This document shows positions 12,513 through 56,613 of a DNA stretch of 64,000 bases, piece after piece. This DNA comes from Anaerolineae bacterium (GTDB lineage Bacteria; Chloroflexota; Anaerolineae; S140-20): assembly GCA_027021705.1 (NCBI GenBank), contig JALUTT010000145.1, positions 64,001 through 128,000 of the forward strand, in the 5' to 3' direction. A program made the translations under genes and the position numbers. Numbering within the stretch: the first letter of the stretch is position 1; each line of letters begins with the position of its first letter. The notes beneath the pieces were generated by a model. The model did not search any database and was not told the DNA's origin. It was given only the letters and a program-made list of their open reading frames with translations.

Positions 12513-12556
12513 CAGTATCCTCGGAAAGGGCTGACATCGGGAGCGATACACCGCTC

Positions 12557-12674
12557 GTGTTCACCCTCCCGCGGGTTAGGCGCGTTTCCGACGCGAAACC
12601 GCGCTTCAAATAGCCCATCGGGGCTGAAAGCGCCTTCGACCGGTAACCTGCAGGAGGGGAGGCTGAATAGATAC
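12557..12674 (+). mobile_element. MITE-1 copy A (118 bp, 4-bp deletion at left end)
   Basis: Perfect 8-bp TSD CACCGCTC (12549-12556 and 12675-12682). Same sequence as copies B-F. Confidence 0.92.
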
Positions 12675-12682
12675 CACCGCTC

Positions 12683-12710
12683 ATTTTAGCACAGTTTGGG
12701 GGGAAGGCAA
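12683..12710 (-). promoter_or_regulatory. sigma70 promoter abutting the MITE-1 A target site
   Basis: TTGCCT-16bp-TAAAAT with TG extension. Confidence 0.65.
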
Positions 12711-12942
12711 GGGAGCGTCGAGTTCTCAAAGCAGGCTTTCCCGACCGCGGGTGCCAACCGTGTACGGGTTCGCCATCGGTTGGGCGGGGTAGAGGCTCAC
12801 GCCGGGCCGGGGGTTCCAGGGCTGCGGGAAGCTTTGCAGCCCCGGAACCCCTGTTTCAAAATGGCGTCGGGGTCGCAGATCCTCGGAGATGCCCGGATGC
12901 TTCACCTGCGCCCGAACTCGACCTCCGCCGTCCGTCCCCCGA

Positions 12943-14790
12943 TCAGGGGTTCTTGAGGGTGACGGGTAGGTAGACCCGTCGCGTCTCACCCAGCACGGCG
13001 AAGAGAGAGAGATGGCTGAGGGGAGCCGTCACCGTGTTGTCGGCAGCATCCACCACGCTGCCGGCCTCTTTTGTCCACTGGCTCCCCGTCCAGTAGTAGA
13101 GCGCCAACGTGCTCTCGATGGCCGGCCCTTTTTCCTCGTCGTTGTAGGAGATGGTGATGGTGTAGCTCTTCCCGGAGGCGGGTTGGGCGGGGAGGCCCGT
13201 GGCCTCATAGACGGCCTCGATGTCGAAGAAGCGGTCTATGCCGGTTAGGTCGCTCCCCGGCGACGGAGCGTTCTCGGATGCACGGGCTGTGCAGGTCACC
13301 ACCGCCGTGTCGGTGAAGGTGTTCGGCGGGAAGTCCAGGACGATGCCGGAGGCTGCCAGCAGCCCGCCGGAGGTCGGGATGGTCATCGCCACGGGGCTTC
13401 GGACCTGCCTGTCGCGGACAAAGATGTCCCGCTGGTTATTGGTGTCGCCTGAGACCAGGTTGCTGGCGTCGGATCCGAAAGCGACATAGTGGCCGTCGGC
13501 CGACACTGAGGGATTCCAACTGTCACCGTAGGCCTCGGTTCCATCGGAAGCGATAGAGACACAGGCGGTTTGGTTGGTTGACCGGTCCCGGACGAAGACG
13601 TGTCGGGCGGCATAGCTGCAGGTCGAGTCCAGATCGTAGGCGTTCGACACGAAGGCGATAAACCGACCGTTGAAGGAGATGGATGGGGCCTCGCTGAACC
13701 CGTCCCCTTCCGAGCCGCTGGAGGAGACGGAGATGCGGGTGGTAGTTCCACCCCTCCAGTCGCGGAGAAAGATGTCCGCGTATCCGTTGGTGTCGGAGGA
13801 GACCAGGTTGGTGGCAGAGGAGGCGAAGGCCACGTAGCGCCCATCGGCCGAGATGGAAGCGCTCGTGCTGTTGCCGTTGCCCTCCGTCCCGTCGGAGGCG
13901 ACGCTGATGCGGATGGTGCTGATTCCTCCCGGCTCGTCGAAGACCCCATCCTCATCGGCATCCCGGTCGTGGAGGAAGATGTCGGTCTGGGAATTGGTGT
14001 CTCCGGTGACCAGGTTGTCGGCGCCGGACTCGAAGACGACGAAACGGCCATCGGCGGAGATGTCGGGGTAGTAGCTGTCGCCGTTCGCCTGGGTGCCGTC
14101 GGAGGCGACGCTGACGCGGACGGTGCTCACCTTCCCCGACTCGTCGAAGACGCCATTCCCATCGGTATCCCGGTCGTGGACAAAGATGTCGCAGGCGCTG
14201 TTGGTATCCGAAGCGACCAGGTTTGTGGCGCAGGACCAGAAGGCCACGAAGCGGCCGTCGGCGGAGATGGCGGGGTCGTTGGAGCCTCCGTATTGGCCCT
14301 GGGAGCCATCGCTGGCCACACTGACCCGGACGGTCTTGCCGAGTTCTCTGTCGCGCACGAACACATCCACCCAGTTGTTGGTGTCTCCGCTCACCAGGTT
14401 GGTGGCGTAGGAGGCAAAGGCCACGAAGCGGCCATCGGCGGAGATGGCGGGGGCGTAGCTGTGCCCGTTGGCCTCACTCCCGTCGCTGGCCACGCTGACC
14501 CGGCTGAGGGAGCGCATCGCCCGGTCGTAGACGAAGATGTCGTCCCGGCCGTTGTTGTCACCGAGGACGAGGTTGGTGGCATTGGACGCGAAAGCGACGA
14601 AGCGGCTGTTGGCGGAGATGGCGGGGAAGGAGCTGCCCCCGTTGGCCTCCTCGCTGTAGAGCCCAAGGGAGATGCGCTGGGTCGCACCGCCCGATTGAGC
14701 CCCTGCGTCCTTCGGCGGGCTGCCGAGAGCCCCCACCATCAGGCTCGCGGACAGCAAGCAGACGACAAGTATCGTGGTATGGGGTTTCAT
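12943..14790 (-). CDS. Secreted TolB/PD40-like beta-propeller repeat protein with Chloroflexi-type C-terminal YLP motif
   Basis: Signal peptide; about 7 repeats of PAISADGRFVAF.S.ATNLV.GDTN...DIFV.D; ends RRVYLPVTLKNP. SD AAGGAG lies before ATG 14790. Confidence 0.88.
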   Translation of the reverse strand: MKPHTTILVVCLLSASLMVGALGSPPKDAGAQSGGATQRISLGLYSEEANGGSSFPAISANSRFVAFASNATNLVLGDNNGRDDIFVYDRAMRSLSRVSVASDGSEANGHSYAPAISADGRFVAFASYATNLVSGDTNNWVDVFVRDRELGKTVRVSVASDGSQGQYGGSNDPAISADGRFVAFWSCATNLVASDTNSACDIFVHDRDTDGNGVFDESGKVSTVRVSVASDGTQANGDSYYPDISADGRFVVFESGADNLVTGDTNSQTDIFLHDRDADEDGVFDEPGGISTIRISVASDGTEGNGNSTSASISADGRYVAFASSATNLVSSDTNGYADIFLRDWRGGTTTRISVSSSGSEGDGFSEAPSISFNGRFIAFVSNAYDLDSTCSYAARHVFVRDRSTNQTACVSIASDGTEAYGDSWNPSVSADGHYVAFGSDASNLVSGDTNNQRDIFVRDRQVRSPVAMTIPTSGGLLAASGIVLDFPPNTFTDTAVVTCTARASENAPSPGSDLTGIDRFFDIEAVYEATGLPAQPASGKSYTITISYNDEEKGPAIESTLALYYWTGSQWTKEAGSVVDAADNTVTAPLSHLSLFAVLGETRRVYLPVTLKNP

Positions 14791-14962
14791 TGTTGGCTCC
14801 TTTGGTAGGCTCTGCTGGTCAAGCCAGCCAGATCCGCGACGCACTCCGTGACGGTGTGCGTTGGGGTATCGTCGCTTTTCCGGCTGCCTCATCGGGCAGT
14901 CCGTAAGGACGACAACTCCCGGACGGGGGCCCTGCATCTATGTGGCTTGTTAAGGTGTTCTT

Positions 14963-15679
14963 CTACCCTCCTTCTGGATGTGAATCGGGGGCCGATCCGA
15001 GGAGGCCCAGGGCGGTCAGTGCTTCGATCACCGGCGGAGGGTGCCAGAGCCAGGCGACCTTCAGCCAGAAGCCGGTCAGGATGGCGGAGCGGTAGACGCC
15101 TTCGGCGTCGGGAGGGACGAGGCGATAGCGGCCCCGGTCGTCCAACCGGTAGAACTCGGCCCGCTCGGTGAGGGGGTCAATGAGCCAGTACTCGGGGATG
15201 CCGGCCTCTTCGTACTCGTAAAACTTCTCGCCTCGGTCGCGCCCCACGCTTTCGGGGGAGACGATCTCGACGGCCAAGTCGGCGGGGCCGTCGAGGTAGG
15301 TCGTCTTCAGCCGGTCCAGATGGTCTTTGGCAACGAAGATCAGGTCGGGCTCCCGCCCTGAGCGGGAGAGCTTCATCTGAAAGGGTGCGCTGAGCACCAC
15401 CCCCAGGTCCCGGTGTTCCACGAAGAGGCGTGTCAAGACGAGGAGGAAGTCGGCGATCTCCTGATGACGCTTTGAGGCCGGGCTGTAGGTGATGACCTTG
15501 CCGTCCACCCATTCGGCCAGGGTGTCCTCGTCGGCCCATTCCAGGAAGGCCTCGTAGCTCATCCGCCGCTCCTGGGGTGGCGCGAGGAGCAGCTCGATCA
15601 GCTCCCGACGCAGTTCGTCGGTAAGCACTCCCGGCTCCCGCAGCAGGGCCAGCGCCTTTTCCCCTTGGGTTGCCATCAT
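14963..15679 (-). CDS. Uma2 (DUF820) family PD-(D/E)xK endonuclease
   Basis: REPDLIFV, GPADLAVEIVSPES, RDRGEKFYEYEEAGIPEYWLIDP. Confidence 0.93.
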   Translation of the reverse strand: MMATQGEKALALLREPGVLTDELRRELIELLLAPPQERRMSYEAFLEWADEDTLAEWVDGKVITYSPASKRHQEIADFLLVLTRLFVEHRDLGVVLSAPFQMKLSRSGREPDLIFVAKDHLDRLKTTYLDGPADLAVEIVSPESVGRDRGEKFYEYEEAGIPEYWLIDPLTERAEFYRLDDRGRYRLVPPDAEGVYRSAILTGFWLKVAWLWHPPPVIEALTALGLLGSAPDSHPEGG

Positions 15680-15768
15680 CCAGACCTCCTGGGCGACGGA
15701 CCATTGTCGCCGGGCGATCTGCAGGTCGGCTCTCCACCAGAAGCGGAAGGCTACACCTCTCAGAGGGA

Positions 15769-15797
15769 ATTATAGAATGAAAAGGCAATCCCGACAA
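15769..15797 (-). promoter_or_regulatory. sigma70 promoter for the Uma2 gene
   Basis: TTGTCG-17bp-TATAAT. Confidence 0.7.
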
Positions 15798-15839
15798 AGG
15801 GGTGATTCCCTATGAGTCGTCGTTGTGGCAAGCCGTCCA

Positions 15840-16928: not shown

Positions 16929-16948
16929 CGCTCTCCCCTGGATCACCT

Positions 16949-21954: not shown

Positions 21955-22001
21955 CGCGCCTCCTTCCCCCATCACGTTCCTTGCATCACCTTTCACTATT
22001 C

Positions 22002-22066
22002 ATCTTAGCACATCTGGCGAGGAAAGTCAACGACCCGTTGCCCTTCGTGCTCATTTGTGTTACACT
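22002..22066. promoter_or_regulatory. Divergent sigma70 promoters (Lon-like gene and dynamin gene)
   Basis: Minus strand: TTGACT-17bp-TAAGAT (22030 to 22002). Plus strand: TTGCCC(22038)-17bp-TACACT(22061) with TG extension. Confidence 0.7.
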
Positions 22067-22086
22067 AGAGGGGCGTTTCCTCAAGG

Positions 22087-22208
22087 GTGGCTATTCAGCC
22101 TACCCTCCCGCAGGTCACCGGTCGAGGGCGCTTTCGGCCCCGATGGGCTATTGGAAGCACGGTTTCGCGTCGGAAACACGCCTAACCTGCGGGAGGGTGG
22201 ACAGTTAC
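22087..22208 (-). mobile_element. MITE-1 copy B (122 bp)
   Basis: TSD CCTCAAGG / CTTCAAGG (7 of 8 match) at 22079-22086 and 22209-22216. Confidence 0.92.
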
Positions 22209-22233
22209 CTTCAAGGGCTCGGAAGCGGAGGGG

Positions 22234-23982
22234 ATGATGCTTGACGTGCGCTTGACGCCGGCGCAGGAACGGTTGGTGGACCAGGTACGCCAGTGGCTGG
22301 AAGCGTTGCAGGCCGCTCTGGTCGAGTTGAAGGCTACAGCGGAGGACCAGGAGGCCCTGGATCAGTCCTTGCGTCAGTTGGACGACTTCTTCCTCTTGGT
22401 TGTCGTGGGAGAGTTCAACGCGGGCAAGTCTGCCTTCATCAACGCGCTCCTGGGCCATCCCTTGCTGGAGGAGGGCGTTACCCCCACTACCCGGGCCATC
22501 CACTTGCTGCGCTACGGCGAGGAACCGGATCGCACCTTCCAGGATGGCCTCTGGATCCAGACGGCTCCTTTGGACCTGCTCCGCACCATCCACATTGTGG
22601 ACACGCCGGGGACCAACGCGGTCCTGCGGGAGCACGAGGCCATCACCGAGGCTTTCGTCCCCCGCAGCGATCTGGTTCTCTTCGTCACCTCGGCCGACCG
22701 CCCCTTCACCGAGAGCGAGCGCCGTTTCCTGGAGAAGGTACGGGCCTGGGGGAAGAAGATCCTCTTCGTCGTCAACAAGATTGACATCCTCCCCGATGAG
22801 GACGCCATCCAAAAGGTGACCGATTTCGTGGCCCAGAACGCTCAGCGGCTGCTGGGGGTGACGCCGGTGGTCTTTCCCATCTCCGCCCGGTGGGCGTTGC
22901 GGGCGCGGGAGACGGGGGACCGGGCGGTGCTGGCCGGCAGCCGCTTCCCGGCCCTGGAGCGCTACATCCGGGAGACCCTGGACGAGGCCGGCCGCTTCCG
23001 CCTCAAGCTGCTCAACCCCCTGGGTGTGGGCCGACGACTGGCGAACCACTACCGGGAGGCGGTCGAGGCGGAGCTGGCCCTGCTGGCCGCCGACCGAGAG
23101 GCCATTGACGGCCTGGAGCGCCAACTGGCCCTCTACGAGGCCGACGTCCGACGGGATTTCCGCCTGCGGTTGAGCGAGATGGACAACTGGCTCCACGAGA
23201 TGGAGAAGCGAGGGCGGCTCTTCTTCGACGAGACGCTGCGGCTGGCCCGGCTCTTCGACCTGATGAAGAAGGAACGGGTGCAGAAAGCCTTCGCCGAGCA
23301 GGTGGTTGCCGATACGCCGGAGCGGATCGAGACGGCCATCGAGGACCTGATTGACTGGCTGGTGGACCAGGACCTGCGCCAATGGCAGGCGGTGACCGGT
23401 TACCTGGAGGCTCAGGTGAAGGCTTACGAAGACCGGCTGGTGGGGCCGACAGGGGCGCTGGGGGGAGCGCTGGCTCAGGACCGCCGCCGGCTGCTGGAAT
23501 CGGTGGGGCAGGCAGCCCGCCGGACCATCGCCGGCTACGACCGGGAGGCGGAGGCGGCGATGCTGGCCGAGACGGCCCAGCGGGCCGTGGCCGAGTCGGC
23601 CCTCTTCGAGGTGGGGGCGGTGGGGTTGGGCACGTTGTTGACCTTGGTGCTGACCTCGACGGCGGCCGACCTGACGGGGCTGGCGGCGGCCGGCACCGTC
23701 GCCCTGATGGGCTTCCTGGTCATCCCCACCCGTCGGCGCCAGGCCAAGGCCCGGCTGGAGGAGAAGGTCGGGCAGTTGCGTCGCCGGCTGGTGCAGGAGC
23801 TGACCCACCACTTCGAGCGGGAGTTCAACCACAGCCTGCAGCGGATCCGCGACGCCGTGGCCCCTTACACCCGCTTCGTGCGGGCGGAGACGGCCCGGCT
23901 GGAGGCCCAACAGGCCCGCCTGGCCGAGATCGTGGAGGCGCTGCAGGCCCTGCAGGTCGAGGTGGAGCGGTGGAAGGGCTGA
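22234..23982 (+). CDS. Dynamin-like GTPase
   Basis: G1 GEFNAGKS, G2 GVTPTT, G3 DTPG, G4 NKID, helical stalk and C-terminal hydrophobic paddle. Confidence 0.92.
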   Translation: MMLDVRLTPAQERLVDQVRQWLEALQAALVELKATAEDQEALDQSLRQLDDFFLLVVVGEFNAGKSAFINALLGHPLLEEGVTPTTRAIHLLRYGEEPDRTFQDGLWIQTAPLDLLRTIHIVDTPGTNAVLREHEAITEAFVPRSDLVLFVTSADRPFTESERRFLEKVRAWGKKILFVVNKIDILPDEDAIQKVTDFVAQNAQRLLGVTPVVFPISARWALRARETGDRAVLAGSRFPALERYIRETLDEAGRFRLKLLNPLGVGRRLANHYREAVEAELALLAADREAIDGLERQLALYEADVRRDFRLRLSEMDNWLHEMEKRGRLFFDETLRLARLFDLMKKERVQKAFAEQVVADTPERIETAIEDLIDWLVDQDLRQWQAVTGYLEAQVKAYEDRLVGPTGALGGALAQDRRRLLESVGQAARRTIAGYDREAEAAMLAETAQRAVAESALFEVGAVGLGTLLTLVLTSTAADLTGLAAAGTVALMGFLVIPTRRRQAKARLEEKVGQLRRRLVQELTHHFEREFNHSLQRIRDAVAPYTRFVRAETARLEAQQARLAEIVEALQALQVEVERWKG

Positions 23983-33297: not shown

Positions 33298-33322
33298 CCC
33301 TTTCGGCGACGCCGTTGGTATG

Positions 33323-33360
33323 CCCTCCCACAGGTTCTTGGAGTCTGTGGGAGGGTTTTT
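33323..33360 (+). terminator. Intrinsic terminator after the RpiR gene
   Basis: CCCTCCCACAG / CTGTGGGAGGG 11-bp stem followed by TTTTT. Confidence 0.8.
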
Positions 33361-33452: not shown

Positions 33453-33482
33453 TTGACGTTTCCCCAACCTCGATGCTATAAT
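33453..33482 (+). promoter_or_regulatory. sigma70 promoter of rph
   Basis: TTGACG-18bp-TATAAT with TG extension. Confidence 0.8.
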
Positions 33483-33491
33483 CCAGCCCGT

Positions 33492-33613
33492 GTATCTAGT
33501 CAGCCTACCCTCCCGCAGGTCACCGGTCGAGGGCGCTTTCGGCCCCGATGGGGTATTTGAAGCACGGTTTCGCGTCGGAAACGCGCCTAACCTGCGGGAG
33601 GGTGAACAGTTAC
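33492..33613 (-). mobile_element. MITE-1 copy C (122 bp)
   Basis: Perfect TSD CAGCCCGT (33484-33491 and 33614-33621). Termini GTATCTAGTCA ... TGAACAGTTAC. Confidence 0.95.
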
Positions 33614-33698
33614 CAGCCCGTTGTGAACGCCTGTCCGGAGGTGGACGATGGCGGTGAGGTCGGATGTCTGGACGCTGATGTGATGTATGGAGGGATGG

Positions 33699-35851: not shown

Positions 35852-35884
35852 CCCCCGGCAGGGTTCGATGCGCTTTCATCCTGC

Positions 35885-36006
35885 GTAACTGTTCACCCTC
35901 CCGCAGGTTAGGCGCGTTTCCGACGCGAAACCGTGCTTCCAATGGCCCATCGGGGCCGAAAGCGTCCTCGACCGGTGACCTGCGGGAGGGTAGGCTGAAT
36001 AGACGC
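35885..36006 (+). mobile_element. MITE-1 copy D (122 bp)
   Basis: Perfect TSD CATCCTGC (35877-35884 and 36007-36014). Confidence 0.95.
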
Positions 36007-36048
36007 CATCCTGCACCCTATCCCGACGAGGTTGAGGAGGAGAAGACG

Positions 36049-37411: not shown

Positions 37412-37523
37412 GTAACCGTTCACCCTCCCGCAGTTAGGCGCGTTTCCGACGCGAAACCGCGCTTCCAATAGTCCATCGGGGCTGGAAACGCCCTCGACCG
37501 GTGACCTGCAGGAGGGGAGATTG
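37412..37523 (+). mobile_element. MITE-1 copy E (decayed right end)
   Basis: Starts GTAACCGTTCACCCTCCCGCAG and has the same interior. The right terminus is degenerate and no TSD was recognised. Confidence 0.85.
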
Positions 37524-37608
37524 AGGGAGGGCTTCGGGGCTGGGATAGGGGGAGATGGGCGCGGGTGTTTCGTATAGTCAGGGCTTGGCAACGAGGAAGG
37601 GGGGCAAT

Positions 37609-40836: not shown

Positions 40837-40886
40837 TTGACGTAACTTGGGATGTAGCTTACAATTCGGGCACGGCTCTCCGTTAT

Positions 40887-40996
40887 CCGGTGATTACCCA
40901 TAAGTGTGGGCTGCGGTGGGCCGTCCACGAATTTTTCACGAATGCACGAATGGGGTGGATCTTCATTCGTGTATTCGTGCCTCTTCGTGGACGGCT
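40887..40996 (+). mobile_element. MITE-2 partial copy
   Basis: CCGGTGATTACCCATAAG...GGGCCGTCCACGAAT...ATTCGTGTATTCGTGCC.CTTCGTGGACGGCT; the right TIR is missing. Confidence 0.85.
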
Positions 40997-41003
40997 CTCT
41001 GAG

Positions 41004-41972
41004 TCAGGTCGGTGCCCGGCCTTCCGATGGGGGGAAGGCCGGGCGCTTGCGCTGAGGAGGACCTTCCTCTCTCAACCCCACCGGTCGGATCAGCAGCCCT
41101 TCCTCCACCACCTCCACCACCACCCGGTCCCCGATGCCCAACCGCTCCCGGTACTCCGGCGGAATCTGCAGCCGCCCGGCCGAGTCCACGACGACGTACT
41201 CGACGTAGGCCCCGGCGGACGATGGGGCGGGCTCCGCCTCGGTCGTCGGGGGAGGGCCGGCCGGCGGTTCAGGACGGAGGACGCGCCGCTCCGTGCTCGT
41301 CTTGCCGTCGCGGATGGCGACAACCCGGTCCACCCAGGCGGTGATGTCGGGATCGTGGGTGACGATGAGGAGGGTCAGGCCCAAGGTCGCGTTCAGCCGC
41401 CGGAAGGTCTCGTAGATGGTCCGGGCCGTGGCCGAATCCAGCTCCCCCGTCGGCTCGTCGGCCAGGAGGAGGGGGGGATGGTTGGCGAGGGCGACGGCGA
41501 TGGCAACCCGCTGCTGTTCGCCGCCGGAGAGCTCCGCCATCCGGTGGTGCTGCCGCGCGTCCAGCCCCACTGCCTCCAGGAGCGCCTGCACCCGGGCCTC
41601 CCGCTCGCGGGCCGGCAGCCCTGCCAGGAGCATCGGCAACTCCACGTTCTGCCGGGCCGTCAGGTAGGGGAGCAGGTTGCGCCCGCTCTGCTGCCAGACG
41701 AAGCCCACCTCCTGACGGCGGTAGCGGTCCAGCGCCCGGTCCGAGAGCGTCGTCAGGTCCTGCCCATCCACCACCACCCGACCGGCCGTGGGGCGGTCCA
41801 GCCCGCCGATGAGGTTGAGCAGCGTCGTCTTGCCGGCCCCCGACGGTCCGACGAGGCCGACCACCTCCCCCCGCTCGACGGTCAGCTCCAGCCCCTGGAG
41901 GGCCACCACCTCCCGCCCGGCGATGCGGTAGATCTTCACCAGCCCGTCGCAGAGGATGAAGGGCCCAGACAT
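41004..41972 (-). CDS. ABC transporter ATP-binding protein with C-terminal AbrB/MraZ-like domain
   Basis: [23 protein letters not shown]-terminal [26 protein letters not shown]. Confidence 0.92.
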
Positions 41973-46303: not shown

Positions 46304-46423
46304 GAGAAAAAGGACAACTTGCCGGAACGGGCATTTCGGCCGGCGGTCTGCGGTCCGCCGTCGGCGGTCGTCCTCTTGCAGAGAAAAAGGACAACTTGCC
46401 GGAACGGGCATTTCGGCCGGCGG
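46304..46423. repeat. Two exact 43-bp direct repeats separated by 34 bp
   Basis: GAGAAAAAGGACAACTTGCCGGAACGGGCATTTCGGCCGGCGG at 46304-46346 and 46381-46423. Confidence 0.9.
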
Positions 46424-46433: not shown

Positions 46434-49118
46434 CTATCGTCCGCCGCCGGTCAGGAAGGCGGGCAGGGAGGGGTCCGTCTCCCGCAGGCAAGCTTCCCAT
46501 CGGGCCTGGTCGAAGAAGGCATCGCGGGCGAGGACGCAGGCGCGGTAGGCGTCGGCCAGCCGCTGGGCTGCTGCGAGGGCTTCGGCAGGGCCGGCCTCCC
46601 CCCGCACCACCTGGCCGTAGGCGCGGAAGAGCCAGTAGGTCACGCCCGTCAGCCAGGGCTCCTGGACGAAGGGGAGGAAGGGCTGCTCCGGCCCCACCAC
46701 GCCGGCCCGGTAGGCCGCGACCCGCTCCTCGCCCACCCGTCGGCGATAGGAGGCCGATTCGGCCACCGAGCGGCGGGCCGGGAATCCCTGAGCCGCCTCG
46801 GGCCGGGTGGTCAAGAAGGTGATCCACGTCCAACAAGCCTCTCGTGCCCCGGTCCGGGCCGAGATGAAGTAGCCCCGCACCGAGAGGAGGGCACCGTTGG
46901 AGCCCGGCCCGGCCGGCAGCGGGGCGAGGCCCACCGGTGCAGCACCTTCCTCCAGGTTGCCGGGGGTGGTGGTCGTCCACATCGCCGCCCGTCCCTCTTG
47001 GATCAGGGCCTCTCGCTGCGTCTGGAAGGGGGCGAGGTCTGCCAGCTCGGTCAATCGGGTGGCGAGGCGGGGTTTGACGCCGTGCTCCGCCGTGAGCGCG
47101 GCGTACCAGCGCAGCGCCTCGACGGTGGCCGGGGCGTCGAGGGTGAAGGCGGGCGGCGTCACGCTGTCGTCCACGACGGATCCCCCCAGCCGGGCCAGGA
47201 TGAGGGGCAGGTGGTAGCCCTCGTAGGCTTCGCCGACGAAGCCGTACTGCTTCTCCGCCCCCTCGCCTCGGGTCAGGGCGCGGGCGAGGCTCAGCAGGTC
47301 GTCGGGCGTCCAATCCGGCGGGGGGTAGGGCAGGCCGGCGGCGTCGAAGAGGTCCCGACGGTAGGCGACGACGAGGGGCACGGCCTCGGCCGGCAGTCCC
47401 CACAGGCGGCCCCGGGCGGTGAAGGGCTCCAGGAGCGAGGGGTAGAAGTCGTCGCGGGAGAGGGTTGGGTCGGTGCTCAGGAAGGGGTCCAGGCTGATCA
47501 CGGCGGTCCGGGCCTGGGGATCGCGCAGGGTGGGCGGTCCCAGGAAGCAGTCGCCGGCCTCGGCCAGGGCCTGGAGGGTGTAGGGGCGGTCGGGGGGGAG
47601 GGGGCGGACCTCGACGACGACCTCGGTCTGGGCTTCGTGGAAGGCGCGGGCCAGGTCCCGGTAGCGCTGGGCCTCGCGGGAGTCGGGTCCGGTGAGGAAG
47701 GTGATGACCGCCGGGGTCGGGCCGGGGCGGGCCTGGGGTGCCGGCGGGGAGACGGTGAAGGGGGGCACGGGGGTGATCTGGGCTTCCCAGGCCAGGGCCT
47801 GCCGGATCTCGGCCACCGCCTGCTGTTGGGCCTCGGCCATCGCCTCTTCCACCGTCTTCTCCCCCCGCAGGATGGCGTCCAGGGCCCGGTAGAGGGGGCC
47901 GTACCCGGGCACGGAGGGAGGGGGGTAGCCGTGGGCGAGGGCGTAGCGGAGGGTGTCGGCCATCTCGGCGTCCATCGTCTCCCAGAGGCCGCCGGCCTCG
48001 GCCGTCGAGGGGCGGGCGGGGAGCAGGGGAGCGCCCTGGGGGCCGGGGAGGAGCTGGTGGCTCAGGAAGCGCATCCAACGCCAGGCGGCGTCGGGGTGGC
48101 GGGTGCCGGCACTCATCACCAGCCCCTGCACCTGGATCGGGGTCGTCCCCTCTTGGGGGCCGCCGCCGGGGAAGGGGAGGCAGCGCACCCGGTCGGGCAG
48201 GCGCTGCCGGGTCAGGTCCCAGGCGGGGTCTGCGGCCATCGCGGCCTCCTCCAGCCAGGCACCCGGTTCCAGCTTCGTCACGCCGACCTTCTGCTCGAAC
48301 CGTGGGGGTGGCATCACCCGTGCCTCCTGCACCAGGTCGGCGAACCAGGCCACTGCTCGGATCGCCGGCGACGTGTCGAAGCGGGGGGTGGGCGGGTCGG
48401 TGGAGGGGTCCACCAGCGGTCCGGCGCGGCCTTCGATGAAGGCGAGGAGCGTCGTCGGGGGGAGGGGATCGGGCAGGAGGAAGCCCCAGCGGGTCGTCCG
48501 CTCCCCCTGGCGCACCGTGAGGGCGTGGGCGGTGGTCAGGAAGTCGTCCCAGGTCCAGCCGGGCCGGGGGTGGGGCAGGCCGGTTTGGTCGAGGGCGGTC
48601 CTGTCGTAGCAGATGAGGGTGACCTGGACCGTCGTGGGCAGGCCCCAGGTGTGGCCGTTGCGGCGGTAGCCCTCCAGCGTGCCGGGGTAGAAATCCTGGG
48701 GCCGGAAGTCGGGGTCGGCCTCCAGGAAGGGGGTGAGGTCGTGCAGCAGGCCCTGGTGGGCCATCACGAGGGCGGTGGTGGGGTCGGCGGGGAAGACGTC
48801 GGCGGTGGTGGCCAGGCGCAGGAAGGGGGTGGGGCCGCCCGCCGGTCCCGGCCCCACCGCCGGGATGGGGACCATCAGGACGCGCAGGTTAGGGTTGGCG
48901 GCTTGGAAGGCTTCGACCAGGCCCTGATAGGCGGCCTGTTGCCAGTCGTAGACGGCGAAGGTGAGGGTGATCCCTTCGTCGCCGCCGCCGGGCGCGGCCG
49001 GGGGCGACGGAGGCCGGGGGAGCTCCCGGCCGCCTCGGCAGGCGGCCAGGAGCAGGAGCAGCGCGAGTAGGAGGATCGGCCATAATGGCCGGAATCCTGC
49101 GTTTCTCTGATCGCTCAT
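46434..49118 (-). CDS. Lipoprotein with two tandem family-1 extracellular solute-binding domains
   Basis: Lipobox LLLAAC; duplicated DFYP..LE / G..WGLP / GLP.P..WT.DD.L..A.ALT / AAW.W..FL blocks. Confidence 0.88.
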   Translation of the reverse strand: MSDQRNAGFRPLWPILLLALLLLLAACRGGRELPRPPSPPAAPGGGDEGITLTFAVYDWQQAAYQGLVEAFQAANPNLRVLMVPIPAVGPGPAGGPTPFLRLATTADVFPADPTTALVMAHQGLLHDLTPFLEADPDFRPQDFYPGTLEGYRRNGHTWGLPTTVQVTLICYDRTALDQTGLPHPRPGWTWDDFLTTAHALTVRQGERTTRWGFLLPDPLPPTTLLAFIEGRAGPLVDPSTDPPTPRFDTSPAIRAVAWFADLVQEARVMPPPRFEQKVGVTKLEPGAWLEEAAMAADPAWDLTRQRLPDRVRCLPFPGGGPQEGTTPIQVQGLVMSAGTRHPDAAWRWMRFLSHQLLPGPQGAPLLPARPSTAEAGGLWETMDAEMADTLRYALAHGYPPPSVPGYGPLYRALDAILRGEKTVEEAMAEAQQQAVAEIRQALAWEAQITPVPPFTVSPPAPQARPGPTPAVITFLTGPDSREAQRYRDLARAFHEAQTEVVVEVRPLPPDRPYTLQALAEAGDCFLGPPTLRDPQARTAVISLDPFLSTDPTLSRDDFYPSLLEPFTARGRLWGLPAEAVPLVVAYRRDLFDAAGLPYPPPDWTPDDLLSLARALTRGEGAEKQYGFVGEAYEGYHLPLILARLGGSVVDDSVTPPAFTLDAPATVEALRWYAALTAEHGVKPRLATRLTELADLAPFQTQREALIQEGRAAMWTTTTPGNLEEGAAPVGLAPLPAGPGSNGALLSVRGYFISARTGAREACWTWITFLTTRPEAAQGFPARRSVAESASYRRRVGEERVAAYRAGVVGPEQPFLPFVQEPWLTGVTYWLFRAYGQVVRGEAGPAEALAAAQRLADAYRACVLARDAFFDQARWEACLRETDPSLPAFLTGGGR

Positions 49119-49262
49119 AAGCGTATAGCTCAGCGGCAGCAGTGGTGACCGCGAAGTCGCTGTTGGCGCGATAAGTGTTGGATTGACTGCCCATACTTTC
49201 GGAGTCGGGCAGACTTCGGAGATCTTGACCCAAGGGTTATCCACGTTAACAAGATTTGCAAT

Positions 49263-50024
49263 TTACTCAGATGGTGGATGTGGGAACCAGTCCCGAGTTA
49301 GTCCATCAATCATCCACCAAGTCTCCGAATCTAATTGCAAATCAAGTAAGTATTTCAAGAGAACCTTTCCATCTTTGTCACTTAACTCTATCTTGCAGAT
49401 AGCAATTCGTCCGCCTTGAGCGTTAATATTAGCAATCAGTGGTCGGAGCGAGGACATAAAGTAAGGGAGTGCTTGATTTGCTCCATCCACAGAAGGTGTT
49501 GATAACTTTAGTACAAGCGTTTGGATACCGTTTGAGGAAGTAACCTCAATGTTTGTCAGGGTCAATCCGTATAGGTTCAACTTTTCCTTCACCATGTTTT
49601 TGGTTGTAATATCATCAACCTTAGGGGAGGAGAGTTCAAGAGTTGCCTCCTCAATGCTCACCGGTGTCTCTTCAGCCCAGAAGATTGTTTTCCCTTCCTT
49701 GTTCAGCAGTCTTAGGGTGAAGCTTTCAATGTTATATCCCTGCTGTTGGGCTAGTGTGATTTCACGCCTCACGATATGTAAGTTTGTGGGGTCCTCAGGC
49801 AAGGCCTTCTCTCCCTCGCTCGCACTTTGGACTGTGATTTCAAGACGGAGGGGAAGCAGGTGACGAATCGTTATGTTCACAACGGGTATACCTTGTCTAT
49901 CTAATTGCTCTCTGAGATATTCTACAACCCCTCGCTGAGCAACAACCTCTGTATACAAGCTTAGGGTGATCCCAACGGTGGCTATGAGTAGTAAAAATCC
50001 TAAGAACAACTTTGTGCGCTTCAT
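49263..50024 (-). CDS. Hypothetical N-terminally anchored protein (low GC, internally repeated domain)
   Basis: 253-aa ORF with SD AGGGAGG and an N-terminal TM helix. Two halves end in L.NKEGK.IF and L.DKDGK.LL. Confidence 0.75.
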   Translation of the reverse strand: MKRTKLFLGFLLLIATVGITLSLYTEVVAQRGVVEYLREQLDRQGIPVVNITIRHLLPLRLEITVQSASEGEKALPEDPTNLHIVRREITLAQQQGYNIESFTLRLLNKEGKTIFWAEETPVSIEEATLELSSPKVDDITTKNMVKEKLNLYGLTLTNIEVTSSNGIQTLVLKLSTPSVDGANQALPYFMSSLRPLIANINAQGGRIAICKIELSDKDGKVLLKYLLDLQLDSETWWMIDGLTRDWFPHPPSE

Positions 50025-50036
50025 ATTTGCCTCCCT

Positions 50037-50645
50037 TTATGGCCCGTAGTTCCGGTAGTAGTATGTGGTGTCTTTTTGGACCTGGTACGGCGCATCTTCC
50101 CGCCATCCTTCTTGATTGAACAAGAACCATTGGTTCCAGGTTGAGCCCATGTAGTATACTGCCGAAAACCGAGTGTCTAATTCATTCTTCGAACTGGTGT
50201 GAACCTCGGAACGTGCAAGGACAAGAGAAGGGGCGGATCTTACTTGATAACAGCCTTTATTGACGCCATCGATTCGCCCACACCATGTTGTACCACCTAT
50301 CCAATCTACCCTGTATTCAACGATACTCCCCCATCCATGAGTCCCATAGTGATGGATACCGTAGATGCCTGAGCTAGTATAGTACTCGACATACTTCTTC
50401 GCTTCTGACCATCCTTTGAGGTAGCGCCAGCCAGCTTGAACCCAATAGGGCTCGGGCAGAGATACCCAATTGGACTCACCAGTTTCCTCGATATAGGGGG
50501 CTGATGATGGTGCCCAGATATTCGCTTTCACACCATAGGCATCCGTCTGACTATTGCCTGTCCACCAATCGGCTGATGTAGTCCCCACACTACTCAGAGT
50601 CATAAAAAGAGTAACTAGTATTCCTATAATCTTGGTCCATTTCAT
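50037..50645 (-). CDS. Secreted beta-rich protein, neprosin / glutamic peptidase G1-like (low GC)
   Basis: Signal peptide ending TSA-D; YGVKANIWAP, SNWV, WVQAGW, SEVH; one Cys pair; SD GGAGG. Family assignment is by recalled motif similarity only. Confidence 0.55.
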   Translation of the reverse strand: MKWTKIIGILVTLFMTLSSVGTTSADWWTGNSQTDAYGVKANIWAPSSAPYIEETGESNWVSLPEPYWVQAGWRYLKGWSEAKKYVEYYTSSGIYGIHHYGTHGWGSIVEYRVDWIGGTTWCGRIDGVNKGCYQVRSAPSLVLARSEVHTSSKNELDTRFSAVYYMGSTWNQWFLFNQEGWREDAPYQVQKDTTYYYRNYGP

Positions 50646-50755
50646 GATCACACCTCCGAAAGTAGAATAGGAACGGATGTTTCTCTACGGCAGGTTGCCT
50701 GGCTGAATGTCAGTAGCTTGGTGACCACTGACGTTTAGTCAATAATGTCAGATGT

Positions 50756-50869
50756 TCAGCATATTTTGCATCCATATTCTATAAGTTGACATCTTGGTTC
50801 AATCCCTGCACAGGGATCATCCTGACAAACGATATACTTTAGAATGCTGTAACATCGCAGACCTCCTTG
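50756..50869 (-). pseudogene. Cryptic Cys-rich peptide frame (6 Cys) with an out-of-frame ATG behind a strong SD
   Basis: The frame reads QGGLRCYSILKYIVCQDDPCAGIEPRCQLIEYGCKIC*. SD AAGGAGGT (50868-50861) precedes ATG 50855, which is one base off this frame and gives only MLQHSKVYRLSG*. Confidence 0.5.
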
Positions 50870-50884
50870 TCACTTCTAGACAGG

Positions 50885-51466
50885 CTAATTGGATCTGGTT
50901 AGGGCCTCCAATGTTTCCAAAGAATTAGCAAAGCCGGCTCTCTGAATCACCCCCTTTCTATCTATCGTGTAAAAGAAAGGTGTCCCTGGTACTTGGTAGG
51001 CTTGAGCAACCTCGTCTTTCCAAGATAGCACTGGAAAGTCAAAGCCTTGTTCTTCTATCAGTCGTTGGTTTTCCTCAATGGTGCCTCGTGAGATCATAAC
51101 CACCTGTACTTCTCGATGGCGTTCGCTGAAGGTCCGCAGGTGAGGATACATCTCGACGCAAGCAGGGCAGTGGGGTGAGGTGAAAGCTAGTAAGATAGGT
51201 CGGCCAGTGAAGGTTTCCAGAGAGATGGTCCGACCAGTAGTGTCAGGAAGGGCGAAGGGGGGCGCCGGAGTTCCCGCTTCCAGTCCTCGAATATGTCTGG
51301 CGGCTTGCAGTGGTTCCAAAGCTATTAGCACTTCTCGCTGCATCTGGTTCACCCAGATGAACAAGACCAAGAGGGAGACCATCAATAGGATAACGATGGC
51401 CATCAGTAACAAGAGTAGCACTTCCAAGCGAGTTGCACGGCGTAGCATTGCTTGGTCGGTCACCAC
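50885..51466 (-). CDS. Membrane-anchored TlpA/ResA/MauD-like thiol-disulfide oxidoreductase
   Basis: TM helix, GLEAGTPAPPFALPD, FTSPHCPAC (CxxC), YQVPGTPF; SD AAAGGAGG. Confidence 0.9.
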   Translation of the reverse strand: MVTDQAMLRRATRLEVLLLLLMAIVILLMVSLLVLFIWVNQMQREVLIALEPLQAARHIRGLEAGTPAPPFALPDTTGRTISLETFTGRPILLAFTSPHCPACVEMYPHLRTFSERHREVQVVMISRGTIEENQRLIEEQGFDFPVLSWKDEVAQAYQVPGTPFFYTIDRKGVIQRAGFANSLETLEALTRSN

Positions 51467-51735: not shown

Positions 51736-52437
51736 TCAACGGTCGGGAGGCAGCCCTTCCCGGCGGGAGGGTGGGCCGGCCGTTGCCTCGGCCCCCTGGG
51801 CCGGGCTGCGCAAGCGGTAGCCGACCCCCCGCACCGTCTCCAGGTAGTGAGGCCGTCGGGGGTCCTCTCCCAGCTTGCGGCGCAGCCGCTTAACGCAGGT
51901 GCGCACCGGGTCGTGGTTCTGGAAGCCGGGGGGGTATCCCCAGACCCTCTCCAACAGTTCCCGGTAGCTCACCACCTCGCCTTGACGGCGGGCCAGGTAG
52001 GCCAGGAGGTCGTACTCGCGTTGGGAGAGGGGGAGGGGCTGGCCGTCGAGGGAGACGGAACGGGCATCCAGGTCAATGAGGAGCCCTCCGACGCGGACGA
52101 GGGGAGGGTGTTGGAGGAGGCGGCGCAGGCGGCGCACCAGGTGGGAGAGGTCGAAGGGGGCGGTGAGGGTTTCGCCGTGGGCCTCGCCGAAGGAGGGGGT
52201 GATGAGCAGGATGGGGCCCCGGTAAGCGTTGGTCAGGGCCTGCCAGTGGTGCCAGGAGAAGTCGGGGGCCATCACGTCGAGGATGATGAGAGAGGTGGAG
52301 GGCTCTAGGTGGGTGAGCAAGGAGGAAAAGCGGCGCAGGGGGAGAGGGGAGAACCCCTCGGCGGTCAGACGGGCAGCGAGGCCGCCGGTGAGGGGCCCTT
52401 CAAGGATGAGGATGGGGGAAGGCGAAATCCCGGACAT
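51736..52437 (-). CDS. Atypical OmpR/PhoB-family response regulator (degenerate receiver plus winged helix)
   Basis: LSQREYDLL.YL, LLERVWGY, RLRRKLGED...P.YLETVRGVGY. The receiver keeps ILDVMAP but lacks the acidic pair and the conserved Lys (TAPF instead of xKPF). Confidence 0.88.
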   Translation of the reverse strand: MSGISPSPILILEGPLTGGLAARLTAEGFSPLPLRRFSSLLTHLEPSTSLIILDVMAPDFSWHHWQALTNAYRGPILLITPSFGEAHGETLTAPFDLSHLVRRLRRLLQHPPLVRVGGLLIDLDARSVSLDGQPLPLSQREYDLLAYLARRQGEVVSYRELLERVWGYPPGFQNHDPVRTCVKRLRRKLGEDPRRPHYLETVRGVGYRLRSPAQGAEATAGPPSRREGLPPDR

Positions 52438-52467
52438 AACTGGAAGGCGTGGCTATACTATCTGTGG

Positions 52468-53721: not shown

Positions 53722-53730
53722 CCCTGGCTC

Positions 53731-55314
53731 CTATAGCGTGATCTGGCGGACGGTTCGCACCTGAGGCAGGGCCTCGATGGCGGCCAGGACGGCGTCGGGA
53801 GCGGCCTCGTCCAGGGTGATCACGGAGAAGGCTTCGCCACCGGGAGCCGTCCGGCCCGTCCGCCACTCGGCGATGTTGATCTGGTGATCTCCCAGAATGG
53901 TGCCCACCCGTCCGATGACGCCGGGGATGTCCCGGCTCTGCATCACCAGCAGCGTGCCCTCGGGGCAGAAGTCGAGCCGATAGGGGCCGACCTGGACGAT
54001 GTGGGGCTCGTGGCGGCTGAAGAGGGTGCCGGCGATCTGCTGTTCCCCCTCGCTCCCGACGGCGTGGCAGGCGATCAGGTTGGGGTAGTCGGGGGTCTCC
54101 AGACCCCGCGTCTGGGAGAGGGCGATCCCCCGCTCCGTCGCCAGCAAGGGGGCGTTGATGTAGTTGACCACCTCGCCCAGGAAAGGGCTGAGCAGCCCTT
54201 TGAGCAGGGCGATGGTCAGCGGCTTGACCTGCTCGGCGATCTCCTCCCCCTTGACCTCGACCTCGATCCGGCGGATGCGGCCCGGGGCCAGCAGGGCCAG
54301 GAGGCGTCCCATCTTCTCGGCCAGCTCCAGGTAGGGGCGGAGCCGGGCGAAGCCGGGGCCGGCGACGAAGGGCAGGTTGACGGCGTTGCGGTAGTCCTCA
54401 CCCCGCAGGGCCTTCAGCACCTGGTCGGCGATCTGGGTAGAGACGTCCCGCTGGGCCTCGACGGTGCTGGCCCCCAGGTGGGGGGTGTGGACGACGTTGG
54501 GCAGGCCGATGAGGGGGTTGTTGATGGGCGGTTCCACGCTGTAGACGTCCAGGGCAGCCCCGGCCACGTGACCGCTCCGGAGGGCTTCGTAGAGGGCCGT
54601 CTCGTCAATGATGCCGCCTCGGGCGCAGTTGACCAGCCGGACGCCGGGCTTCATCATCGCGATCTCCTCCCGCCCGATCATCCCTCGCGTCTCCGGCGTC
54701 AACGTGGTGTGGACGGTGATGATGTCGGCGGTCTGGAGGAGTTCCTCCAGCGTCACCACCCGCACTTTCATATCGAGGGCCACCTCTTCGCTGATGTAGG
54801 GGTCGTAGGCGACGACCTCCATCCCGAAGGCCTGAGCCCGCGCCGCCACCTGGCGTCCGATCCGACCGAAGCCGATGATGCCCAGCCGTTTGTGGTAGAG
54901 CTGGATGCCGAGAAAGCGCTGGCGATCCCATTCCCCTCGGGCCAGGGAGGCGTGAGCCTGGGGTAGGTGGCGACAGAGGGCCAGGATGAGGGCCATCGTC
55001 TGCTCGGCCGTGGCGATGACGTTGGCCTGGGGGGTGTTCATCACGAGGATACCCCGGGCCGTCGCCCGCTCCAGGTCCACGTTGTCCAGGCCGATGCCGG
55101 CCCGCCCGATGACCTTAAGCCGCCGGGCCCGATCCAGCACCTCGGCGTCCACCCGGGTCCCGCTGCGGATGATGAGGGCGTCGTAGTCGCCGATGATTTC
55201 TAGCAGACGTTCCCGGCCTACCTTGCCTGGGGCGTCTACGTGGACGTCAGGAGCGGCCCGGAGCCGTTCCAGGCCGGCTGGGGAGAGCGGGTCGCTGACC
55301 AGAATGCGGAACAT
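53731..55314 (-). CDS. serA: D-3-phosphoglycerate dehydrogenase (long form with ASB and ACT domains)
   Basis: GRAGIGLDNVD, GIIGFGRIG, NCARGGIIDE, TPHLGAST.EAQ, ACT domain DIPGVIG.VGTILG..INIA. Confidence 0.96.
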   Translation of the reverse strand: MFRILVSDPLSPAGLERLRAAPDVHVDAPGKVGRERLLEIIGDYDALIIRSGTRVDAEVLDRARRLKVIGRAGIGLDNVDLERATARGILVMNTPQANVIATAEQTMALILALCRHLPQAHASLARGEWDRQRFLGIQLYHKRLGIIGFGRIGRQVAARAQAFGMEVVAYDPYISEEVALDMKVRVVTLEELLQTADIITVHTTLTPETRGMIGREEIAMMKPGVRLVNCARGGIIDETALYEALRSGHVAGAALDVYSVEPPINNPLIGLPNVVHTPHLGASTVEAQRDVSTQIADQVLKALRGEDYRNAVNLPFVAGPGFARLRPYLELAEKMGRLLALLAPGRIRRIEVEVKGEEIAEQVKPLTIALLKGLLSPFLGEVVNYINAPLLATERGIALSQTRGLETPDYPNLIACHAVGSEGEQQIAGTLFSRHEPHIVQVGPYRLDFCPEGTLLVMQSRDIPGVIGRVGTILGDHQINIAEWRTGRTAPGGEAFSVITLDEAAPDAVLAAIEALPQVRTVRQITL

Positions 55315-55350
55315 ATCGCGCTCCACACCTCACGCTTTGTGTTTCACGTC

Positions 55351-56421
55351 TCACGCGATGAACGCATCTATGCGCTCCAGCAGGGCCTCGATCTCACCCT
55401 GGGTCACGTCGCCCATATGGGCGATGCGGAAGGTCTGGCCCTTGAGACGACCGTAGCCGTTGGAGATGAGCATCCCGTGGCGGCGCAGGAAGCGGTTGAG
55501 CGCCTCCACGTCTATCCCCCGGGTGTTGGTGATGGCGGTGACGGTGGGGCTCTCGTAGCCGGCCTCGGCGAAGAGGGCGAAGCGCTGGCGGGCCCACTCC
55601 TGCACCCGCCGGGCCAGGGCGGCGTGGCGGGCGAAGCGGGCTTCCAGCCCCTCGGCCAGGATGCGGTCGAGCTGTCGGTCGAGGGCGAAGAGGTGGGGGA
55701 TGGCCGGGGTGGCCGGCGTCTGGTTGCGGGCCAGGTACTTCTCGAAGACGAGGAAGTCGAAGTAGTACCCCCGGTGGGCAACCTCTTTGGCCCGCGCCAG
55801 GGCCCGGTCGGAGACGGCGGCCAGGGCGATGCCGGCGGGCAGGGCCAGCGCCTTCTGGGAAGAGGTCAGGCAGACGTCAATGCCCCACCGGTCCACCTCG
55901 ATGGGCGTCCCACCCAGGGAGCTCACCGCGTCCACCAGCAACAGCGTCTCCGGGTAGTCGGCCACCACCTGGGCGATCTCCGGCAGGGGGTTCAGAAGGC
56001 CGGTGCTCGTCTCGTTGTGGACGAGGGCGACGGCGTCGAAGGGGCCGTCCCGGAGGGCTTCGGCGATCTGGTCCGGGCGGATGGCCTTCCCCCAGGGCGC
56101 TTCGACGACGACGACCTCTTTGCCGTTGGCCCGGCTGACCTCGGCCCAGCGCTGGCCGAAGGCCCCGTTGACGGCGTGGAGGATGCGTCGGCCCTCCCGG
56201 ACGCAGTTCCGGCTGGCGGCCTCCTGCAGGCCGGTGCCGGAGGAGGTGGAAACGTAGACGCGGTGCCGGGTGGCGAAGAGCTGGCGCAGGCGGGGCTGGA
56301 GTCGGGCGAAGAGGTCGGCAAATTCCGGCGTGCGGTGGCCGATCTGGGGCTGACTCAGCGCGGCCAGGACGTCGGGATGGACCTGGGTGGGGCCGGGGAT
56401 GAAGAGTCGCGGCACGGCCAT
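55351..56421 (-). CDS. Class V PLP aminotransferase (alanine-glyoxylate/serine-pyruvate family; probably supplies phosphoserine aminotransferase function with serA)
   Basis: FIPGPT, HNETSTG, VDAVSS, SSQKALALPAG, FRIAHMG; directly upstream of serA. Confidence 0.92.
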   Translation of the reverse strand: MAVPRLFIPGPTQVHPDVLAALSQPQIGHRTPEFADLFARLQPRLRQLFATRHRVYVSTSSGTGLQEAASRNCVREGRRILHAVNGAFGQRWAEVSRANGKEVVVVEAPWGKAIRPDQIAEALRDGPFDAVALVHNETSTGLLNPLPEIAQVVADYPETLLLVDAVSSLGGTPIEVDRWGIDVCLTSSQKALALPAGIALAAVSDRALARAKEVAHRGYYFDFLVFEKYLARNQTPATPAIPHLFALDRQLDRILAEGLEARFARHAALARRVQEWARQRFALFAEAGYESPTVTAITNTRGIDVEALNRFLRRHGMLISNGYGRLKGQTFRIAHMGDVTQGEIEALLERIDAFIA

Positions 56422-56454
56422 GCCTTCTCCTCTTGGGGCGGTAGTACCTTGGGG

Positions 56455-56574
56455 GTATCTATTCAGCCTACCCTCCCGCAGGTCACCGGTCGAGGGCGCT
56501 TTCAGCCCCGATGAGCTATTTGAAGCACGGTTTCGCGTCGGAAACGCGCCTAACCTGCGGGAGGGTAAGCAGTT
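56455..56574 (-). mobile_element. MITE-1 copy F (about 120 bp, 2 nt lost at one end)
   Basis: Flanks CCTTGGGG (56447-56454) and CTTGGGG (56575-56581); same interior as the other copies. Confidence 0.9.
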
Positions 56575-56584
56575 CTTGGGGGAG

Positions 56585-56613
56585 ATTATACCTTGCCTGA
56601 GGGGGGACGTCAA
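56585..56613 (-). promoter_or_regulatory. sigma70 promoter of the aminotransferase-serA operon
   Basis: TTGACG-17bp-TATAAT. Confidence 0.8.

Follow-up and report, generated by a model that had tools for sequence, protein, structure and literature searches.

MITE-1, a miniature inverted-repeat transposable element (MITE) of 122 bp, is enriched at predicted transcription start sites across the draft genome G000 of an uncultured member of the Chloroflexota (5.19 Mb in 183 contigs, 66 % GC, around 95 % complete). Six copies lie in the 64 000-nucleotide stretch of DNA analysed here (G000, contig C145, positions 64001-128000; hereafter the window), for which a first-pass annotation had proposed that the element targets start sites. 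The enrichment is genuine, around three- to sevenfold and partial, i.e. it is a bias and not a homing specificity: the adjacency of MITE-1 to promoters proved statistically robust, but with only 19 of the 114 clean copies concerned it does not define the specificity of the element, and the claim therefore has to stay modest. MITE-1 itself is a small, non-coding, multi-copy element with a target duplication of fixed length (8 bp), and represents a new MITE family, probably of the IS66 type; no description of such a start-site placement was found for bacterial elements in the literature searched.

Promoter adjacency across the genome

A profile built from the six window copies gave 199 nhmmer matches in the genome, 173 of which were near full length. 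Among 180 copies evaluated, 73 were flanked by a perfect direct duplication (8/8) and 41 by one with 7/8 identical positions, while randomly paired flanks give only 3 and 17, respectively; these 114 copies are referred to as clean sites. A promoter was counted where a TA...T hexamer with at least five of six matches to TATAAT, accompanied by a -35 box at 16-18 bp, read into the element and ended -7 to +13 bp from the duplication.

By this rule, 19 of the 114 clean sites (around one in six) adjoin a promoter, as compared with 153/5874 random uniform intergenic positions (2.6 %; P=1.5e-10). The distances had thus been compared with random intergenic placement as the first-pass annotation had foreseen, and the outcome was enrichment over chance. 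The difference persisted when intergenic positions were sampled by the target matrix of the element itself (203/5844, 3.5 %; P=1.6e-8), and likewise when each copy was placed uniformly within its own reconstructed spacer (18/110 observed vs 6.0 expected; P=5e-6). With a graded score of at least 9/12, 21 sites were observed vs 6.6 expected, and since this excess does not increase at laxer thresholds, around 13 % of the sites can be regarded as 'extra'.

The adjoining promoters have a characteristic, though not a rigid, geometry. At 13 sites, all with gaps of 0-5 bp between the -10 box and the duplication, the first base of the element lies 8-13 nt past the -10 box, i.e. at about +3 to +8, and therefore the duplication covers the predicted +1. 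Elsewhere the distances vary over around 20 bp, and either end of the element may face the promoter (11 vs 8).

Base composition has to be considered as a trivial cause, since the -10-like hexamers could simply be the AT-rich flanks of the targets in a genome of 66 % GC. The target rule of MITE-1 is in fact W-rich beside the duplication, AT-rich hexamers are 1.8-fold enriched near the sites (present at 68/114 sites and at 2272/5000 random positions), and TANNNT alone is only mildly enriched, pointing away from the element nearly as often as towards it (30 vs 36 of 114). Nevertheless, among sites with a nearby AT-rich hexamer promoters were 5.3-fold commoner beside MITE-1 (19/68) than at random positions (120/2272; P=4e-9), and therefore composition fails to explain the pattern. 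Target-weighted sampling yields 3.5 % where 16.7 % is observed, the regional AT content around the sites equals the background, and the orientation and conservation of the promoters described below also speak against chance. We consider an artefact of this kind highly improbable.

Promoters at the 19 sites

The promoters adjoining MITE-1 look genuine, judging from their sequence context. Each of the 19 reads towards a gene that lies past the element and has the same direction (baseline 144/228; P=1.6e-4), and the 19 flanks are unique sequences. Of the 16 downstream genes located outside the window, 15 gave Pfam matches, among them dnaN, xseA, lon, kinases, a solute-binding protein and an antitoxin. 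The rph promoter, which adjoins copy C in the window, is conserved across genera, its -10 box being kept in two other genera of the family (G001 and G002), which lack MITE-1; there, GCTATAAT stands 38 nt before the rph start codon. For the aminotransferase gene next to copy F no such comparison resulted, as the upstream regions in relatives are long and unalignable and the proteins 48-49 % identical. A hairpin beside TTGCCC-17-TACACT in the related genome G003 was considered as a counterpart of copy B and rejected, because the downstream gene is not an orthologue of the dynamin-family gene.

With these promoters, the element would form the first around 120 nt of the predicted mRNA, in agreement with the 5' leader envisaged in the first-pass annotation. 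That such leaders belong to housekeeping mRNAs is true of part of the set only: housekeeping genes are present, but by their Pfam matches the downstream genes are a mixture of housekeeping and accessory functions. Transcription through MITE-1 would be expected from this arrangement. No promoter-like site was found inside MITE-1 in four scanned window regions, and the sole terminator-like call touching the element in these regions covers only its first base, at copy F. The RNA of copy C is predicted to fold as a long hairpin (-60.8 kcal/mol; z=-2.56), and Rfam covariance models gave no match to MITE-1, neither at the gathering score nor at E-values of up to 1.

MITE-2 as an internal control

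The same genome harbours a second element, MITE-2 (around 155 bp, 177 BLAST matches), which shows how strict promoter seeking appears to the same detector. Among its full copies, 57/88 have an outward promoter by the strict rule and 66/88 at a score of at least 9, i.e. 65-75 %, and the -35 boxes form a sharp peak at 12-15 nt from the approximate element end. This is the classical promoter seeking of the ISKra4/TnGBS kind, and a fragment of an ISKra4-family transposase is present on contig C168. Against this benchmark the association of MITE-1 is weak and diffuse, and because the detector finds promoters at 57-66 of the 88 MITE-2 copies, low detector sensitivity is ruled out as the cause. Outward promoters beside MITE-1 were few and scattered (9/110 at a score of at least 9) and formed no spike, i.e. 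no p-MULT pattern emerged.

The promoter of the aminotransferase-serA genes is bracketed by both elements, with copy F of MITE-1 on one side and a MITE-2 copy on the other. MITE-2 was considered as the driver of the MITE-1 pattern, and rejected as such, since it is found at only two or three of the 19 promoters: a BLAST match to MITE-2 lies within 120 bp of 2/19 promoter-adjoining MITE-1 copies, and by direct reading a MITE-2 end stands upstream of the -35 box in 3/19 promoter flanks.

The comparison with MITE-2 also bears on the initial proposal, in which the transposase of MITE-1 would be guided to start sites by RNA polymerase or the open complex, making the element a mobile 5'-leader system. 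Such homing should bring nearly all copies within a few base pairs of a start, and this is not what we observed: around 17 % of the copies are at promoters vs 65-75 % for MITE-2, the distances vary, the orientation is mixed (11:8), and many copies are found next to a stop codon within a probable operon (48 of 143 in tandem spacers overlap the upstream stop codon or lie within 20 bp of it). Dedicated homing would, on the other hand, account for the 13 copies whose duplication covers the predicted +1. It would also fit the finding that a -35 box, too distant to be covered by a transposase footprint of any plausible size, accompanies 16/17 strict -10 boxes at MITE-1 sites vs 102/178 at random sites, and promoter-guided transposases do exist in bacteria, where those described in PMC3942029 act upstream of the -35 box. 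Overall, we judge dedicated homing unlikely.

The MITE-1 family, its target rule and its probable parent

The termini of MITE-1 are GTAACTGTTCACCC and GTATCTATTCAGCC, one end reading GTAACTG and the other GTATCTA, and form part of a long inverted repeat. Terminal inverted repeats are present, with GTAACTGTTCACCCTCCCGCAGG pairing with the reverse complement of CCTGCGGGAGGGTAGGCTGAATAGATAC, and are kept across copies. As the copies have a median identity of 96.5 % to the consensus (165 aligned copies), the burst that produced them must be recent. At three further places in the genome (C27:55769, C147:7271 and C12:15582), MITE-1 termini enclose another core or one of much reduced length ('type 2' and mini versions).

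Nearly all copies are intergenic, i.e. 143 lie in tandem, 48 in divergent and 6 in convergent spacers, with one genic copy and one at a contig edge. In the 114 reconstructed empty sites, where the duplication occupies positions 0-7, T is found at -2 in 59 and at -1 in 44 sites, and A at +8 in 43 and at +9 in 57 (alternatively numbered +9/+10); GC-rich bases stand beside these T/A positions, with mildly AT-rich patches beyond. This weak palindromic rule holds in the 95 promoter-less sites as well. The first-pass annotation had taken the specificity to be positional, and in the window the four duplications concerned indeed share no sequence, but genome-wide the sites do share the T (-2/-1) and A (+9/+10) preference. 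In tandem spacers the orientation of MITE-1 relative to the flanking genes is skewed (88:55; P=0.007), for which transcription, the direction of replication or selection are possible causes; among promoter-adjoining copies the ratio is 8:11.

MITE-1 appears to be a non-autonomous derivative of an IS66-family element, a parentage suggested by its termini and the 8-bp duplication. In the literature (including PMC12898284), IS66 elements are described as having GTAA-type termini and 8-bp direct repeats. ISDge4 of Deinococcus geothermalis, from the single-ORF (open reading frame) ISBst12 group, is given there with the termini GTAACTGCTCAGCA and GTGACTACTCAGCA and an 8-bp repeat. Like MITE-1, it has termini of GTAA/GTGA followed by C-T-N-N-T-C-A, and in both elements the two ends are imperfectly matched; MITE-1 differs in being gene-less and only 122 bp long. 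In IS66 relatives from the same class the ends read GTAAGCG.TCA. The genome itself contains a fragment of an IS66-type transposase (PF03050, 322 bits) on contig C134, which stops before any inverted repeat. Across 301 genomes of the class, the closest relatives of this transposase share 28-46 % identity with it and come with different termini. For IS66, the accessible parts of the literature searched mention no target preference related to promoters.

Of the four genomes that represent the family and order, only G000 was found to carry MITE-1. The searched collection of genome contigs contained no match to a 21-mer from the element, and the plasmid search likewise gave none. A metagenome scan returned at least 104 loci; among the matches listed, 94 lie wholly in G000 sequence, one (L064) shares one flank, nine represent other element families sharing only the inner motif, and none is an independent insertion site. 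One such family is a different element of around 145 bp (L107, L069, L110 and L124) with the outer ends TTCATTACCCGACA, and because it has the inner 20-mer CACCCTCCCGCAGGTTAGGC in common with MITE-1, the inner hairpin module seems to be reused by several element families. The related genome G003 harbours three short hairpins carrying the MITE-1 inner repeat. In the window, a short hairpin made of the inner repeat alone (CCCTCCCGCAGG, a few bases, CCTGCGGGAGGG) is located at 33322-33356, 3' of an rpiR-type gene; it is followed by TTTT and has a terminator-like score. Similar hairpins occur in L003 (1501-1555), L012 (1481-1515) and L016 (1483-1517).

Insertion preference or selective survival

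In favour of a preference at insertion as the cause of the start-site bias, promoter adjacency depends neither on copy age (10/57 in the better-scoring half vs 9/57 in the other) nor on the decay of the duplication (12/73 with a perfect duplication vs 7/41), the family is young, and the copies are concentrated in the leader. A transposase of the DDE type would choose its targets by the weak palindromic rule, T-rich before and A-rich after the 8-bp staggered cut, with a partial bias for promoter-proximal DNA on top. Most likely, this bias would arise from preferential insertion at active promoters, in the initially transcribed region where the DNA melts easily. Copies at these places may survive as the element, having neither promoter nor terminator of its own, could be read through as a hairpin in the 5' leader. 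To this combination, i.e. a preference for promoter-proximal, easily melted DNA together with tolerance in the leader, we would give an even chance.

Selection and geometry could, however, produce much the same picture with a transposase that is blind to promoters. Copies would then survive where a 122-bp hairpin is harmless, which in short spacers leaves mostly the 5' leader directly behind the start or the stretch immediately upstream of the -35 box, and a hairpin at the extreme 5' end of the mRNA might even be favoured. Purging is certainly strong: only one of the 199 copies is genic, while target weighting alone would put 78 % of insertions in genes, and therefore heavy selective filtering must have taken place, by which positions within the spacers could have been shaped too. 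In many of the reconstructed empty sites no more than 50-60 nt separate the -10 box from the start codon, so that leader insertions necessarily come to lie near the former. A small cluster of eight sites just upstream of -35 boxes, at distances of 1-9 from the element end, is as expected if copies merely pack around intact promoters. Convergent spacers, with 6 copies vs 23 expected by length, are only around twofold depleted once long spacers are left out (6 vs 13.2 in spacers of up to 500 bp; P=0.019).

Several results nevertheless speak against selection alone. Barring all positions that would break a promoter or a ribosome site still left 18 observed promoter-adjoining sites vs 8.8 expected in the copies' own spacers (P=4.6e-4). 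Among the 38 insertions between a -10 box and a start codon, 13 fall within the six positions of gaps 0-5 vs 4.4 expected (P=4e-5), a bin that was picked post hoc and from data in which the three copies of the window that had given rise to the idea are included; over the full range of gaps from -7 to 13 the count is 21/38 vs 13.0 (P=0.003). Many host spacers of 200-600 bp apparently leave much free space, the identity of 96.5 % indicates a young family, and promoter adjacency, as described above, does not rise with copy age or duplication decay. Survival by selection alone is a real possibility, albeit one that we would not expect to hold.

Other observations and the design of the analysis also weigh against a preference at insertion. 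As many as 95 of the 114 clean copies are without a recognisable adjoining promoter, and within tandem spacers the position of the copies is uniform, the downstream start codon being the nearer gene boundary for 71 and the upstream stop codon for 72. For the position within the leader, the Kolmogorov-Smirnov test reached no more than weak significance (P=0.024), and 15/38 insertions fall in the first leader quarter (P=0.058). All insertion sites come from one genome, the genes were called with our own crude caller (3962 genes; 85.6 % coding), and the promoters are consensus matches with predicted start sites. Moreover, none of the transposase genes in the draft, in which the transposase contigs end early (1.1-1.4 kb), was found to be flanked by the MITE-1 termini.

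It is tempting to speculate one step beyond a general preference for melted DNA, i.e. that an IS66-type transposase is drawn specifically to the melted DNA of the open complex, its 8-bp staggered cut straddling +1, although we regard this as doubtful. If true, integration at transcription start sites would be known for a bacterial transposon system for the first time, and would mirror, on the downstream side, that of the elements found ahead of the -35 box. Some 20-40 mRNAs, among them those of rph, dnaN, xseA, lon and the serA operon, would furthermore have received a hairpin leader at their 5' terminus. More generally, a start-site bias would make a selfish element a ready-made 5' leader for many genes. 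If selection is responsible instead, the copies show which intergenic positions tolerate a 122-bp hairpin, a point of relevance to the reading of promoters and leaders in Chloroflexota. With both kinds of MITE and one promoter bracketed by the two, G000 offers a natural system in which the two modes can be compared.

MITE-1 copies and other features of the window

The window copies were located with a repeat finder and by direct reading (Table 1). Direct reading confirmed the positions first given for the six copies, their 8-bp duplications, which five of the copies possess, and the four -10 boxes. The -35 partners of these boxes, at 16 (A), 17 (B), 18 (C) and 17 bp (F), and the downstream genes, i.e. 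those for a dynamin-family GTPase, RNase PH and a class-V aminotransferase with serA, are likewise as had been claimed, as is the lack of an adjoining promoter at copies D and E. Of the four promoters, those at A, C and F were called by an independent consensus scanner (9/12, 11/12 and 11/12 matches, respectively, with a TG before the -10 box at A), but that at B, with 8/12 matches, fell below its threshold and was not called. Each of the three is the sole promoter-like site of its scanned region, where shuffled sequences lead one to expect 0.0-0.2. At copy F the -10 box lies 2-3 bp from the duplication, which can be read one base either way. By the strict rule, the window is richer in promoter-adjoining copies than the genome (3/6 vs 19/114).

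Table 1. Position of MITE copies, adjoining promoter-like sites and downstream genes in the window
Feature	Position	Strand	Details
MITE-1 copy A	12557-12674	+	4 nt absent at GTAAC end; duplication CACCGCTC at 12549-12556 and 12675-12682
Promoter-like site at copy A	12683-12710	-	TTGCCT-16-TAAAAT (TAAAAT 12688-12683); reads into A; 0 bp to duplication
Gene downstream of copy A promoter	11823-12512	-	No Pfam match
MITE-1 copy B	22087-22208	-	Duplication CCTCAAGG at 22079-22086 and CTTCAAGG at 22209-22216 (7/8 identical)
Weak promoter-like site at copy B	22038-22066	+	TTGCCC-17-TACACT (TACACT 22061-22066); 12 bp before duplication; direct reading
Dynamin-family GTPase gene, downstream of copy B	22237-23982		Pfam
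MITE-1 copy C	33492-33613	-	Duplication CAGCCCGT at 33484-33491 and 33614-33621
rph promoter at copy C	33453-33482	+	TTGACG-18-TATAAT with TG extension (TATAAT 33477-33482); 1 bp before duplication; downstream gene RNase PH (Pfam)
MITE-1 copy D	35885-36006	+	Duplication CATCCTGC at 35877-35884 and 36007-36014; no adjoining promoter
MITE-1 copy E	37412-37525	+	GATAC end lost; no duplication, no adjoining promoter
MITE-1 copy F	56455-56574	-	Duplication CCTTGGGG/CTTGGGGG at 56447-56454 and 56575-56582
Promoter at copy F	56585-56613	-	TTGACG-17-TATAAT (TATAAT 56590-56585); reads into F
Class-V aminotransferase gene, first downstream of copy F promoter	55351-56421		Pfam
serA, following the aminotransferase gene	53731-55314		Pfam
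MITE-2 copy	56626-56781		Ends GGTGATTACCCACA; around 13 nt upstream of -35 box of aminotransferase-serA promoter
MITE-2, further occurrence	near 40880-41010		
MITE-2, further occurrence	near 3440-3540		

Copies B, C and D are also present in the strains of runs X2 and X3, as seen in Logan contigs that end inside the copies. Of the window copies, D alone is matched by a record that spans the site and is free of the element, i.e. in run X5 a relative of around 92 % identity has 32 other bases replacing 35853-36035.

Apart from the MITEs, a low-GC island at 49200-51200 (43-48 % GC vs 66-75 % around it) comprises three minus-strand ORFs, one of the AhpC/TSA-redoxin family and two without a Pfam match, and is probably acquired DNA. 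Seven tandem units of 174-207 bp at 13406-14677 lie within the gene of a PD40 (beta-propeller repeat) protein and are coding domain repeats. A heptamer array of GCCCCTT and GCAACTT units is found at 57860-57957, in or beside the start region of a PMT-family gene, and a perfect 43-bp direct repeat with a spacing of 77 bp at 46304-46423, upstream of a gene ending at 46434.

Comparison with known systems

To our knowledge, every promoter-seeking transposon known from bacteria inserts on the upstream side of the -35 box, and an enrichment just downstream of the -10 box, as seen with MITE-1, would point to another cue, i.e. melted DNA or the polymerase itself. Full-text searches of the literature for insertion of bacterial transposons at start sites or in open complexes returned nothing relevant.

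Among small elements, ERIC, Correia/NEMIS and RUP resemble MITE-1 in being hairpin-forming, almost strictly intergenic and often located in transcribed leaders or trailers, as described in the accessible text of a review (PMC10969869). They differ in using TA or other short targets, and Correia elements carry their own promoters; a start-site-centred enrichment is not described for them in the same part of that review.

In its placement MITE-1 may be likened to the Mutator-like TnGBS, ISLre2 and ISKra4 group, for which Guerillot et al. 2014 (PMC3942029) describe insertion at a fixed 13-17 bp upstream of the -35 box for most copies. They share with MITE-1 the bacterial host, the DDE type of transposase and a correlation of the insertion sites with sigma-A/sigma-70 promoters, which are left intact, and members of the ISKra4 group with near-perfect inverted repeats insert in both orientations (PMC3942029). 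In contrast, MITE-1 inserts downstream of the -10 box, at a variable distance and with only around one copy in six. An analogy drawn in the same source is that of the yeast element Ty3, which integrates at the transcription start site of a polymerase (PMC3942029). Ty3, however, is a eukaryotic retroelement that is directed to genes of RNA polymerase III via TFIIIB, and nearly always so, whereas the corresponding bias of MITE-1 is partial.

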